From IMG/VR virus record IMGVR_UViG_2778261571_000008: a stretch of 5,990 nucleotides of DNA, one strand, 5' to 3'. This document shows, piece by piece, positions 1,405 to 5,990 of the stretch (positions within the stretch are counted from its first letter, which is position 1; each line of letters starts with the position of its first letter). The stretch comes from a virus. Lineage: Duplodnaviria > Heunggongvirae > Uroviricota > Caudoviricetes. The position numbers were made by a program, and so were the translations under genes. The notes below the pieces were generated by a model, which made no database searches, was not told the origin of the DNA, and saw only the letters and a program-made list of their open reading frames with translations.

Positions 1405-2310
1405 TTTCATCACCTCTTTAAAAAAGAGCGGTGGCTGAAAAATATGGAGGAAACAACCACCGCCGTGAACGAAAATAGGCTATATCGGAGAAGTTGATAT
1501 AAATATTTTAATCCCCGCGTCGTACGTGTGCAAACACGGCTTCATTGTCGAATATGGCGTTTTTGTGTAATTAGCAGATCTGGTTTTGATACCCGTCATC
1601 GATATTCAGTCAACTAAAAGGCTGGTTTTGGCCTAAGTGTTGAATGGCACTTTTGGAACGCGTCCGATTTCCACGGTTAATCAGCCACCACGATCCAGAC
1701 GGTAGAATGCGGCTTTCAGCCTGCTGAAATGTGTAACATTCCTGCGCTTTAACAAGATCGGGCTATCTGGTACAGATGGCGGCGGCGATCTGTATTTGGT
1801 GGCGGACTAATCTGCGCAGAATCCCGCTGATTTCTTGATGGCAATAAAGCTAACCATAGCGATTCTAAGCGCCTCATCTTTGCCGGTATGCAAACGGTCA
1901 GCCATGTCACATTGAGCGCGTCAGAGGCGCTACTGTGAAGCGGTGCTATAGCTGCGGCGTATCATTGCCAGCGTCATCGTCGTCACGGGAAAAGCTGTAC
2001 ATGCGGGGATCGAGATAGTCGATACAGAAAACCCCGTCATACAGGAAAGCGAGTGCCGTAGCGCAAGCGAAGGCACCAGGCATGTAGCTACGCGCTGAAT
2101 GCGAGTCACAACAGCTTAACAAAAGCACATACATCGCGATAACGCGGTAACACATCCGGCACCACATGCGTAACTGTGTGTTACCCCAGACGTGGCGCGG
2201 CTCTCAGGCTGATTTTGTCTTTTCCGGTCCCACATCTCGGGTACTTTCCAAAACTTTCTACTTTATAAAAATGGAGTAGAAAACAGAGTGAAATCTTTTT
2301 TTTCTGATTT

Positions 2311-2330
2311 ATCTGGTACCATCTGGTACC
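2311..2330. repeat. Perfect tandem 10-bp direct repeat ATCTGGTACC x2 (forward iterons)
   Basis: Read directly: atctggtacc atctggtacc. Each unit contains a GGTACC hexamer. Confidence 0.85.
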
Positions 2331-2366
2331 CATAGAATATATGTAACTACATCAATAACTTAAGTT

Positions 2367-2400
2367 GGTACCACATCCGGTCCCACATCGGTCCCACATC
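2367..2400. repeat. Three tandem inverted-orientation iterons (GGTACCACATC-C-GGTCCCACATC-GGTCCCACATC)
   Basis: Read directly; 11-12-bp periodicity, about one helical turn. The reverse complement GATGTGG(T/G)ACC matches the forward iteron ATCTGGTACC at 8-9 of 10 positions. Confidence 0.85.
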
Positions 2401-2423
2401 CTGCATCTGGTACCATTTTGACC

Positions 2424-2451
2424 AAAAAAAAGCCAACCCCGAAGGATTGGC
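2424..2451 (-). terminator. Rho-independent terminator downstream of the replication gene
   Basis: On the minus strand: hairpin GCCAATCC-TTCG-GGGTTGGC (8-bp stem, one mismatch, tetraloop) at 2451-2432, followed by eight T (plus-strand A-run 2424-2431). It lies 23 nt after the stop codon at 2477-2475. Confidence 0.75.
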
Positions 2452-2474: not shown

Positions 2475-4064
2475 TTACTTGCTCGTAACCTCAGTCATCA
2501 CGTCACTTGCGCTTGCCATTTTGGCTACTTTCGCACGGTCACGCGCTGCCCTTAGTTCGTCGGCAACCTCAAACGGTTTTGCCTGTAGCCAGCGAACGTG
2601 ATTGCGGATAATCCATCCTCGCACTGGTTTTCCGTCAACCTTAACTTGTGGCGCGGCTACCATTCCCGCATCCTCAAACATACGGCGCTGTTTGTTCGTG
2701 ATCTGCGCGTCCACGTCTTCCAGAATGTACTCAGACAGATCTCTGTTGCTGATAATGTCAGAAGGCCAGTCAGCGATCAGTTCATCAAGATATACGCGTT
2801 CCAGCGGTTTGGCTGAGTTAATTGCCCGTAACTTATCCTCATCACACACAGGCGGCTGTTTAATATCGAACCCGCTCAGGTCACGCGTTGCCAGTTGCCA
2901 TCCTAACGCGTTAATCGCTTTGGGATCGCTTATCAGGTCATCAATGCGCTTCGCCATCTCCCTTGCCGCTTCCTTGCCGTATACATCCGCGTATTTGCCT
3001 GAGGTGTGACGGATGACAAACCAGCGGCGATCATGTTCGTCTATTGGCAGTGGGTTGTCATGGTTAGAACACACAAACCAGCGGCACGCGTTCCATTCTT
3101 CATACTTCGCGCCATATTTCACATTAACGCTGCGTACTGGCTCCGTTATCATCGCTTTAAGGCGATTAGCTGTACGGTATTGGCTGTTATCACCTTCCCG
3201 CACTTCGTCGCATGTTGCCAGAACCGCGCCAGCCAGTTCGCTGTTGAACTGCCCTTCAAGTAGCGCATGGATATTAACGCCAGATGCGCAGTTACGTCCT
3301 AACAGGTGTTTTAGGATGTCGCAGAAAGTTGTTCGACCAACGCCCTGAGTTCCGTTTGTGTAATGAAGAATGCCCCAGTGCGGTAGTACCTCAGGGTGCT
3401 GGATCATGTGCGCAATCCAGTTCACTACCGTTACCCACTTGTCACCGAAAAGCCAACGGCAATCATCATAGAATGCGCTGACGTCCGTTTCATTGTCTGG
3501 AAGCCAGATACGCTTTTTCCACAGGTTGAGGCATTTACGACCGCGCGGATCTTCGCAAATTACCGGGCGACCAGGTGCGCAGGTCAGGGCGTCAACAATC
3601 ATGCGCTTATCGCTCTCACGCCAGAGGCTAGTTGTCGGGACGGCCTTCATTTTCAACCCAGCACCCGCGCCGCCGCCAACGTCGATCATCGTTTTACTGG
3701 CGGCATTCATGTTTTTAAACTCTGACCATTTGAAATTACGGTAAGGCTCATCAAGATAAGCAACGCGTTCGCCGTCAGCCACCCAGACACATTTGGTCAG
3801 CATTTCATCCAACGTCATGATCTGCGGCTTCATGGCGTCAACGTCAAGCTGTTGCGGCTCCGTAGCTTTGACTGCGTTTTCCGCAATGCGCTGGCGTTCA
3901 GCTTCGCGCTCTTTGATCTGTTGTTCGGCGATCTCTACGACGCTGGCAAGCTCCTCGTCAGTAGGGCTAATGCGCACACCTGCGCTATTTAGCGGTATTA
4001 CATTTGCGATATTTTTTTCAGCTCTGACCTGGTCATCCGGGCCGTTTTGTGGCATATTAATCAT
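2475..4064 (-). CDS. Replication initiator: SF3 (D5/P4-alpha C-terminal-like) helicase-type protein, 529 aa, with atypical Walker A
   Basis: Motifs in canonical SF3 order and spacing: Walker-A-like HYTNGTQGVGRTTF (R codon at 3335-3333), Walker B AVLATCDEV (DE at 3209-3204), motif C WFVCSNH (N at 3065-3063). SD AAAGAGG 9 nt before ATG at 4064-4062. Followed by terminator and iteron origin. No separate primase domain was recognised by eye. Confidence 0.8.
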   Translation of the reverse strand: MINMPQNGPDDQVRAEKNIANVIPLNSAGVRISPTDEELASVVEIAEQQIKEREAERQRIAENAVKATEPQQLDVDAMKPQIMTLDEMLTKCVWVADGERVAYLDEPYRNFKWSEFKNMNAASKTMIDVGGGAGAGLKMKAVPTTSLWRESDKRMIVDALTCAPGRPVICEDPRGRKCLNLWKKRIWLPDNETDVSAFYDDCRWLFGDKWVTVVNWIAHMIQHPEVLPHWGILHYTNGTQGVGRTTFCDILKHLLGRNCASGVNIHALLEGQFNSELAGAVLATCDEVREGDNSQYRTANRLKAMITEPVRSVNVKYGAKYEEWNACRWFVCSNHDNPLPIDEHDRRWFVIRHTSGKYADVYGKEAAREMAKRIDDLISDPKAINALGWQLATRDLSGFDIKQPPVCDEDKLRAINSAKPLERVYLDELIADWPSDIISNRDLSEYILEDVDAQITNKQRRMFEDAGMVAAPQVKVDGKPVRGWIIRNHVRWLQAKPFEVADELRAARDRAKVAKMASASDVMTEVTSK

Positions 4065-4132: not shown

Positions 4133-4161
4133 GCCCCGGTTGCGACGGGGCTTTGTTATTT
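4133..4161 (+). terminator. Terminator-like GC hairpin plus T-rich run, plus-strand orientation, in the leader between the second alpA-like gene and the replication gene
   Basis: GCCCCG-gttgcga-CGGGGC (perfect 6-bp GC stem, 4133-4151) followed on the plus strand by TTTGTTATTT (4152-4161). It overlaps the stop codon of the 4156-4401 gene. On the minus-strand mRNA the same hairpin forms but is not followed by a U-run. Confidence 0.3.
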
Positions 4162-4401
4162 CTGGTCTATGTATCTTCCGCATTGCTGTAAATCCCTCAT
4201 TAGCTCGTCTCTATGGATTTCGTACCACGCAAGCATGTCGGCTTTTAGCCATAACATCATGTTTCCGCGCCCTCGTGTCATAGGTTCCGGGAAATCCGGG
4301 TAACGACGCATTACGTGGTAAACTGAGCGCCGTGAGCGGTTAAGTAGTTCGCTGACATCTCTTACTGTCATGATGAAATCCTTCACCGTTTGGCCTTTCA
4401 T
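4156..4401 (-). CDS. AlpA-family / excisionase-like HTH DNA-binding protein (81 aa, or 71 aa from internal Met)
   Basis: Translation ...MTVRDVSELLNRSRRSVYHVMRRYPDFPEPMTRGRGNMMLWLKADMLAWYE fits the AlpA/Xis HTH pattern. SD AAAGAGGG 7 nt before ATG at 4401-4399; an alternative ATG at 4371-4369 has a GAAGGA SD. Stop TAA at 4158-4156 is 91 nt upstream of the replication gene. Confidence 0.7.
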   Translation of the reverse strand: MKGQTVKDFIMTVRDVSELLNRSRRSVYHVMRRYPDFPEPMTRGRGNMMLWLKADMLAWYEIHRDELMRDLQQCGRYIDQK

Positions 4402-4714: not shown

Positions 4715-4733
4715 TTATACAGTAACTGTATAA
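4715..4733. repeat. 19-bp perfect palindrome TTATACAGT-A-ACTGTATAA overlapping the LexA-like box
   Basis: Read directly. 9-bp arms with a 1-bp centre; chance expectation in 6 kb is about 0.02. It shares the ACTGTATAA arm with the LexA-like site, giving three alternating ATACAG/CTGTAT half-sites across 4717-4741. Confidence 0.8.
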
Positions 4734-4743
4734 CCATACAGGC
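4724..4743. promoter_or_regulatory. LexA-box-like site (SOS box), CTGTAT-N4-ATACAG
   Basis: aaCTGTATaaccATACAGgc: CTGT at 4726-4729 and ACAG at 4738-4741 with an 8-nt spacer; both 6-bp arms CTGTAT/ATACAG are perfect. It matches 14 of 20 positions of the E. coli consensus TACTGTATATATATACAGTA, including the whole invariant core. It is the only CTGT-N8-ACAG in the window. Confidence 0.45.
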
Positions 4744-5094
4744 CGAAAACCCGCTGTTTTACTGCCTATTTACCATAATGGATCTTGTGCGCACCATTTT
4801 CCGGTGATTGATTTCTGACCCTGTTTCGACGATAAAGCCATCCATTTTTCTCTGACTCGTAAAAGCTGGCATGAAATTTGATGTGGCGTGATTTGTTATG
4901 ATTGTGTTACCGCCAGTCTTGCCGCTGACGTCGGCTACGCGCGCGCATGTACATGTCCGAAAATTACCCCCATAAAAGCGCCCCTCATATAGTGCAAAAA
5001 CCCGGATGGCGCGGCTTTCGGCGGTTTTAGCATTGAAAACTAACTTCAAAAACGGCCCGCTATCGTTCGCTAACTACTCGCTAACCTCTCTGGC

Positions 5095-5867: not shown

Positions 5868-5990
5868 TTATTCCCCCATATAGAAATAGTCATCTAATTG
5901 ATCGCGTAGTTCTTTTGGTCCGTTAAACCATTCATCAATGGTCGCATTAAATACCGGATCGCCATCGAAGTAGGTTTTTGTGAAGTCGTC
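5868..5990 (-). CDS. orfA, C-terminal segment (enters window at 5990; stop TAA at 5870-5868)
   Basis: Reverse-complement translation from 5990: DDFTKTYFDGDPVFNATIDEWFNGPKELRDQLDDYFYMGE-stop. The first five codons are encoded by the 16-bp repeat and are in the same frame as the final DDFTK of the 1-322 segment. Joined product is 142 aa. Confidence 0.55.
   Translation of the reverse strand, partial: DDFTKTYFDGDPVFNATIDEWFNGPKELRDQLDDYFYMGE
5975..5990. repeat. Right copy of 16-bp terminal direct repeat TTTTTGTGAAGTCGTC
   Basis: Exact identity with positions 1-16. Confidence 0.9.

Follow-up and report, generated by a model that had tools for sequence, protein, structure and literature searches.

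An opposed iteron array directly 3′ of an SF3 helicase gene as the probable replication origin of a small, plasmid-like enterobacterial element

The DNA analyzed here, referred to as the window, is a stretch of 5,990 nucleotides (nt) from a virus record assigned to the Caudoviricetes (IMG/VR record IMGVR_UViG_2778261571_000008), and it contains an array of short repeats (iterons) next to a gene, rep, that encodes a 529-amino-acid (aa) protein, Rep. Nucleotides 1 to 16 are identical to nucleotides 5975 to 5990, and this 16-nt overlap indicates that the window closes into a circle of ~5,974 bp. The region from 2146 to 2414 is very probably the vegetative origin of this ~5.97-kb circular, plasmid-like element, recognized by Rep as a self-loading superfamily 3 (SF3) helicase-initiator. 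The region is read as an origin, and the 529-aa protein as its initiator-helicase, because the layout matches that of the origins of Staphylococcus aureus pathogenicity islands (SaPIs) and Escherichia coli phage-inducible chromosomal islands (PICIs). The assignment to this known type of architecture, in a small and so far undescribed family of plasmid-like elements, is well supported, and the origin is of an expected kind rather than a new mechanism.

The array comprises ten copies of a 10- to 11-bp unit with the consensus 5′-GATSTGKKACC-3′ in the rep sense, six running one way and four the other. On the minus strand, D1 (2390-2400), D2 (2379-2389), and D4 (2226-2236) all read GATGTGGGACC in the rep sense and have the core GGGACC, D3 (2367-2377) reads GATGTGGTACC in the rep sense with the core GGTACC, and D5 (2158-2168; CATGTGGTGCC, or GGCACCACATG on the plus strand; core GGTGCC) and D6 (2146-2156; GATGTGTTACC; core GTTACC) are the most divergent copies. 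On the plus strand, I1 (2405-2414), I2 (2321-2330), and I3 (2311-2320) all read ATCTGGTACC with the core GGTACC, I1 forming a near-palindrome with D1, and I4 (2176-2185; GTGTGTTACC; core GTTACC) is degenerate. Neighboring iterons are spaced 10 to 12 bp apart, about one helical turn, with start-to-start distances of 11 and 12 bp among D1, D2, and D3, a spacing of 12 bp between D5 and D6, and 10 bp between I3 and I2.

The two repeat forms are reverse complements of a single unit, and the original prediction, made earlier from the sequence of the window, was right to treat them as one family in both orientations: the unified motif ATSTGKKACC, with at most one mismatch, has 12 matches in the window against 1.38 expected, 10 of which fall within 2146-2414, and none of 200 shuffles reaches 12. 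The form GGTMMCACATC has five exact matches (2146, 2226, 2367, 2379, and 2390) against 0.28 expected, a count reached by 0 of 200 shuffles, and ATCTGGTACC has three (2311, 2321, and 2405), compared with 0.16 expected even for matches with up to one mismatch. All nine copies listed in the prediction are found where it placed them. One of these, D5, departs at two positions from the consensus proposed for it, GGT(A/C)(A/C)CACATC, and is kept as a genuine copy because relatives of the element have a perfect iteron at the aligned position; the tenth copy, I4, had been missed. Chance or nonfunctional low-complexity repetition, which has only the short length of the unit in its favor, can be regarded as refuted by these shuffles and by the conservation of the sites in position, with a core that changes in concert, in 11 relatives (see below).

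The array has the anatomy of an origin. The first iteron starts 60 nt past the rep stop codon, directly behind a strong intrinsic terminator of rep (2424..2451, minus strand; GCCAATCCTTCGGGGTTGGC followed by T8), which is kept in all relatives. The iterons form two groups, at 2367-2414 and 2146-2236, with I2 and I3 between them, and they flank two AT-rich stretches, spacer 1 (2331..2366; 22% GC) and spacer 2 (2237..2310; 28% GC), in an element with an overall GC content of 48%. D1 to D3 on the minus strand face I2 and I3 on the plus strand across spacer 1, and I2 and I3 face D4, D5, and D6 across spacer 2. Spacer 2 contains a T8/A8 tract at 2296-2303, and its box GATAAATCAG..A8 is nearly invariant among the relatives; this stretch is the candidate melting site. 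A GC-rich box between D4 and I4 (2193..2209; GCCTGAGAGCCGCGCCA in the rep sense) is present in 8 of 12 origins regardless of their iteron class, is variant in three relatives (L012, L014, and L015), and has one base changed in a fourth (L016). No DnaA box lies in 2146-2415, and the whole window has 8 matches to it against 5.5 expected; a search for Rfam families gave no match, either in the origin or elsewhere in the 1.07-kb intergenic region. An integration host factor site at GATAAATCAG..A8 was considered, and only half of the consensus is matched by eye; no claim is made for it.

Rep (2475..4064, minus strand) matches the Pfam family DUF5906 (9e-22), and its central part is an SF3-type P-loop helicase. 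The closest sequence match of known structure is the helicase region of the primase-polymerase of phage NrS-1 (6k9c; 3e-12). Rep matches the "DNA primase" family PHROG 1156 over its C-terminal half only, and its score against the P4-family model TIGR01613 is 19.8 bits, with a cutoff of 108.7; for these two reasons Rep is taken to be without a primase domain, and a domain search found no primase or Toprim domain in it. An AlphaFold2 model of Rep (mean predicted local distance difference test score, 78) was compared with known structures by Foldseek, and the best matches are the NrS-1 helicase region (7e-15), and the cryo-electron microscopy structures of SaPI5 PriRep (1.5e-6) and of SaPI1 Rep1 with double-stranded DNA (4e-6), followed by poxvirus D5/E5 and the PrimPol of African swine fever virus. 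In an exhaustive search, the domain of Rep is also found at the C terminus of 81 protein clusters, most of which are 700 to 1,000 aa long. The C-terminal domain of Rep itself (aa 409 to 529; 2478..2840, minus strand) is predicted to be a winged helix, with a predicted recognition helix at aa 457 to 465 and a β-hairpin wing at aa 474 to 485; the strength of this fold assignment is modest.

These features place the element next to several described replicons. SaPI Rep is a self-loading SF3 helicase whose C-terminal winged-helix domain reads iterons and which binds and melts the origin without ATP; SaPI origins lie directly 3′ of rep and have 6 to 12 short iterons running in opposite directions on both sides of an AT-rich center (PMC9371898). 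The element resembles SaPIbov1, SaPI1 (Rep1), and SaPI5 (PriRep5) in the position of the origin directly 3′ of rep, in the opposed iterons flanking AT-rich DNA, and in an SF3 helicase with a predicted winged helix, and the Rep model matches the SaPI Rep structures 7ola and 7pds by fold. It differs from them in that Rep has no detectable sequence similarity to SaPI Reps (13 to 16% identity in structural alignments), the iterons are 10 to 11 bp long rather than 5 to 6 nt, there is no primase gene or domain and no integrase, and the host is an enterobacterium. The rep-ori cassette of the E. coli PICI EcCICFT073 has been shown to drive plasmid replication, and two iteron sets flank an AT-rich region 3′ of its initiator gene (PMC6092414). 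By description, this pri-rep-ori island has in common with the element its host group, its origin organization, a unidirectional gene order, and an alpA-like gene. PICIs, however, are integrated and possess an integrase and an att site, whereas the element is a free circle without an integrase, and in its larger relatives a serine resolvase gene is present instead. Lacking both an integrase and an att site, the element is not a PICI in the strict sense; by analogy, it is best described as a PICI-type replicon on a free circle.

The α protein of satellite phage P4 likewise combines a D5/SF3-type helicase with an origin-binding winged helix at the C terminus and binds short repeats in both orientations, and the P4 repeat, TGTTCACC, resembles GATGTGTCACC. 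P4 α, however, has an N-terminal primase that Rep does not have, and P4 has two separate repeat regions, ori and crr, whereas the element has one compact array; no second, crr-like cluster is found in the window, where the only matches to the iteron motif outside the array are two with one mismatch, at 1765 and 4902. A P4-type α replicon was rejected on the missing primase domain, the TIGR01613 score below the cutoff, and the missing crr-like cluster. The element also shares a plasmid-borne origin, with initiator-binding repeats beside an AT-rich unwinding element, with the classical iteron plasmids (RepA/π/TrfA; pPS10, R6K, F, and RK2). Those plasmids use Rep_3-type initiators with two winged helices (WH1-WH2), which recruit DnaA and DnaB, and direct iterons of 17 to 22 bp, whereas here the initiator would itself be the helicase, the repeats are 10 to 11 bp long and in both orientations, and the origin has no DnaA box; with no Rep_3 match either, a Rep_3-type iteron plasmid was rejected. 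No other protein matches the helicase and C-terminal region of Rep better, in sequence or in fold, than the NrS-1 primase-polymerase (6k9c/6lrb), a phage protein that, unlike Rep, has a fused primase-polymerase domain. To our knowledge, no iteron origin has been described for NrS-1.

By analogy with the SaPI and PICI systems, the C-terminal winged-helix domain of Rep would read the iterons, whose spacing and two orientations would position oligomers of Rep, probably a single hexamer on each side, so that they flank the AT-rich stretches at 2237-2310 and 2331-2366. The duplex would melt at these stretches, and the helicase would load itself there in a double-hexamer geometry. Since Rep is without a primase domain, priming is left to another enzyme, presumably one of the host.

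Close homologs of Rep are few and form 12 clusters with 74 to 91% identity. Their contigs are 5.6 to 11 kb long, seven of them have assembler-type terminal overlaps marking circles, and one relative has been deposited as the E. coli plasmid pRHB04-C06_4 (8,873 bp). The circular relatives, this deposited plasmid, and the 16-nt overlap of the window ends are indirect signs that the element may replicate autonomously. A single-protein scan of the genome_contigs set found no relatives, a profile scan found only relatives of ~30% identity in unrelated metagenome-assembled genomes, and a search of the viral_contigs set found none; in a phage collection, there was no DNA match, and the protein matches were to the helicase domain only, with at most 26% identity. 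The gene order is common to all relatives and consists of a helix-turn-helix (HTH) gene, rep, a noncoding gap of ~1 kb, an AlpA-like HTH gene, an HNH endonuclease gene, and small open reading frames (ORFs).

The region 3′ of rep was aligned for 12 elements, the window and 11 relatives (designated here by L numbers). The repeats are conserved in these related elements with the same type of initiator, an outcome in favor of the original prediction: I1, D1 to D4, I2, I3, and D5, that is, 8 of the 10 sites, occupy identical aligned positions in all 12 elements and so in 11 of 11 relatives. I4 and D6 are present in most relatives, D6 being absent in L016, L002, and L010. The 2-nt core of the iteron is uniform within each relative and switches as a whole set between elements. 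Four relatives (L007, L013, L016, and L024) belong to a GGTACC class (GATGTG-GT-ACC), two (L005 and L012) belong to a GTCACC class (GATGTG-TC-ACC), and five (L002, L010, L014, L015, and L027) belong to a GTAACC class (GATGTG-TA-ACC). A concerted change at about ten sites on a conserved scaffold is as expected for sites that would be read by a single protein head. Distant relatives, with Reps of 33 to 35% identity, also have two-orientation repeats 3′ of rep, namely, TTGTAAGG in L017 and CGGTTACAAC in the Proteus plasmid pW47-1.

The iteron core varies together with a short segment of Rep, and this points to the 529-aa protein as the best candidate binder, in agreement with the original prediction. 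The core class cuts across overall Rep identity: the Rep of L005 is 91% identical to that of the window, yet its iterons are of the GTCACC class, and that of L016 is 71% identical and is accompanied by GGTACC. In an alignment of nine Rep sequences, the only columns that separate the three classes are 471 to 473 and 479 to 480. The nine sequences split 3/2/4 by class, which allows 1,260 labelings, and only 5 of these yield at least five class-separating columns, the others mapping to a mosaic N-terminal segment. The five residues fall in the predicted β-hairpin wing after the putative recognition helix. Two further homologs served as a test of prediction: P0007 has the wing PAPV..KA, from which GTAACC was predicted, and its contigs carry GTAACC, while P0005, with a wing of a new kind (PCRQ..AP), comes from contigs whose iterons have GGTACC. 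In all 12 elements, the identity of residue 473 goes with the core, being Q with GG(T/G)ACC, R with GTCACC, and V with GTAACC. The segment at aa 470 to 481 (AAPQVKVDGKPV; codons at 2622..2657, minus strand, with Q473 at 2646-2648) is accordingly proposed as the part of Rep that may specify the iterons, and the wing of the window, AAPQ..KP, is unique among the homologs found. A separate observation concerns aa 19 to 33 of Rep (window ~3966-4010), an N-terminal, predicted disordered segment that is mosaic among the relatives, with variants that follow neither the backbone nor the class of iteron.

The two small HTH proteins of the family served as controls, and they bear on a different reading, in which the repeats are operators for the 65-aa AlpA-like or the 81-aa HTH protein and control transcription rather than replication. 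Both proteins are HTH_17/excisionase-like DNA binders found in every relative, and repeats in two orientations are typical of operators. Neither protein, however, has a single class-separating column, and the 81-aa proteins of the window and L005 are nearly identical although their iteron cores differ. The array also lies behind a terminator and ~610 nt upstream of the sole promoter-like site of the next operon, and ten sites flanking AT-rich DNA are the anatomy of an origin and not of an operator. Operators are a very unlikely explanation.

The gene content of the larger relatives raises the question of packaging. L010 to L013 and L015 to L017 add a gene for an Sf6-type small-terminase-like protein and a serine resolvase gene, and L007 and L013 encode a protein of ~787 aa; the window and L005 are minimal versions, without any of the three. 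The HNH gene and, in the larger relatives, the terminase-like gene hint at induction or packaging by a helper phage. The repeats could on this account be a packaging site (pac or cos-adjacent) bound by the small terminase or by the HNH endonuclease, which all relatives encode, and terminase small subunits often bind repeated sites. This is extremely improbable for the array, since the window and L005 keep it in full without a terminase-like gene, its class-specific core covaries with Rep, and its location directly 3′ of rep with an AT-rich center fits origins.

Several points weigh against an origin read by Rep in the way proposed here. Rep has no primase, and the element is thus not self-sufficient in the manner of the SaPI pri-rep pair. 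The iterons of the window are heterogeneous (GGGACC in three copies, GGTACC in four, GTTACC in two, and GGTGCC in one), and a single reader head would have to tolerate mixed cores, or some copies would be weak or vestigial. The covariation rests on 11 relatives, several of which are closely related to each other, and it links the wing segment to the iteron class without proving that residue 473 contacts the bases. The mixed iterons of the window, together with its unique wing, may mean that specificity is relaxed at core position 8, that the element is in a transitional state, or that the left-hand copies are vestigial.

Beyond the origin assignment, a tentative and somewhat less than even proposal is that the 12-residue wing segment, marked by residue 473 (Q, R, or V), sets the 2-nt core that is read (GG/GT, TC, or TA). 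The family would then be a natural series of origin specificities, in which the concerted conversion of about ten iterons creates incompatibility groups among recombining plasmid-like, probably satellite, elements related to the cryptic prophage CPZ-55 (see below), and the window would be a relaxed-specificity or transitional state in the middle of such a switch. Some Rep-binding iterons, most likely D5, D6, and I4, might also serve mainly in copy number or incompatibility control by titration or handcuffing, an additional role rather than an exclusive alternative. In favor of this role, the element seems to have a plasmid lifestyle, conservation is lowest in the left-hand copies, and there are at least three mutually exclusive core classes among mosaic relatives, which is expected if origin specificity defines incompatibility groups; these observations, however, do not separate control from initiation, and the role is considered unlikely, if far from negligible. 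We know of no SaPI-type origin that uses handcuffing.

The analysis marks an origin and an initiator for an unannotated family of circular enterobacterial elements of 5.6 to 11 kb, whose proteins are listed as hypothetical in databases; pRHB04-C06_4, the E. coli plasmid among them, is labeled non-mobilizable in its record, which shows neither replicon nor relaxase typing. With three clean iteron classes and one mixed case, the family lends itself as a compact system for testing origin recognition by a self-loading SF3 helicase. The proposed specificity determinant is narrowed to about 12 residues, and of the by-products, the natural series of specificities is the most useful.

Outside the array, the original prediction had pointed to two further copies of the 7-mer ATCTGGT, at 1578-1584 and 1765-1771, placed them in the leader of the alpA/HNH operon, and suggested that they couple initiator binding to its expression. 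The 7-mer does occur five times, always within 1578-2411, against 0.56 expected in the window, and three of these copies are inside iterons. The two extra copies are within chance (P of at least two, ~0.11 for a Poisson mean of 0.56). The alpA/HNH operon has a single promoter-like site, at 1534-1505 (minus strand), and both copies are therefore upstream of this likely promoter and not in the leader. The segment at 1765-1774 (ATCTGGTACA) aligns to GATACCAAAT, which is unchanged in relatives of all three iteron classes, and it thus does not covary with the core; it is deleted in the closest relative, L005. In L005, with its GTCACC iterons, the copy at 1578-1584 is unchanged. The two one-mismatch matches to ATSTGKKACC outside the array, at 1765 and 4902, are as many as chance predicts. 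Given their chance number and the lack of covariation, the proposed coupling is not supported, and the outlying copies were rejected as iterons.

Every plausible gene of the element is encoded on the minus strand. The 81-aa HTH protein (4156-4401) is encoded upstream of rep, and rep is followed by a gap of 1.07 kb, the 65-aa AlpA-like gene (1216-1413), and the HNH endonuclease gene (682-1212). There are several small ORFs on the same strand without family matches, and an ORF starting at 322 spans the circle junction. Family searches of the window proteins gave no integrase match for any ORF.

A 37-nt segment of the window (4909-4945) is 100% identical to an intergenic region of the cryptic prophage CPZ-55 (L022; E. 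coli K-12 MG1655), between yffQ and yffP, and 213 of 217 E. coli genomes with a match to this segment have it at 99% identity or more. CPZ-55-like chromosomal islands at eutA/eutB with intZ (L001 and L023) share the small-ORF module with the element and have another gene in place of rep-ori and no iterons. The elements of the family thus look like relatives of CPZ-55 that exist as free circles; no paper linking CPZ-55 to satellites was found in the literature searched.

Within the 1.07-kb gap, most relatives keep a block of ~290 nt adjoining the origin (1855-2145), whereas L007 and L013 have unrelated sequence in its place. The block contains a hairpin, GGTGCC..GGCAC, and a frame, unconserved in its 5′ part, that encodes DYLDxxxYxYxxDDDD and has 3-nt indels in its poly-Asp stretch; it may encode a small protein or an RNA. 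A small ORF at 2167→1946 (73 aa, lipobox-like), which overlaps the left iterons, was not adopted, the 5′ end of the frame being unconserved in relatives. A LexA-box-like sequence, CTGT-N8-ACAG, is present at 4724-4743 (AACTGTATAACCATACAGGC; 14 of 20 positions of the consensus), ~325 nt upstream of the HTH-rep operon. The box in the equivalent relative place of L005 is better (16 of 20), that of the chromosomal island L023 is weaker, and the larger relatives have none; the box hints that the replication module may be under SOS control. A GC-rich hairpin with a long loop (1428-1465, minus strand; GGCGGTGG..CCACCGC), followed by a T-run, closely precedes the ribosome-binding site of the AlpA-like gene. 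This hairpin is kept in at least 8 of 10 relatives (not in L013 and L015), with compensatory stem changes (GGCGGC/GCCGCC and GCGGCAAC/GTTGCCGC), and it could be an attenuator or terminator that gates the AlpA/HNH operon.

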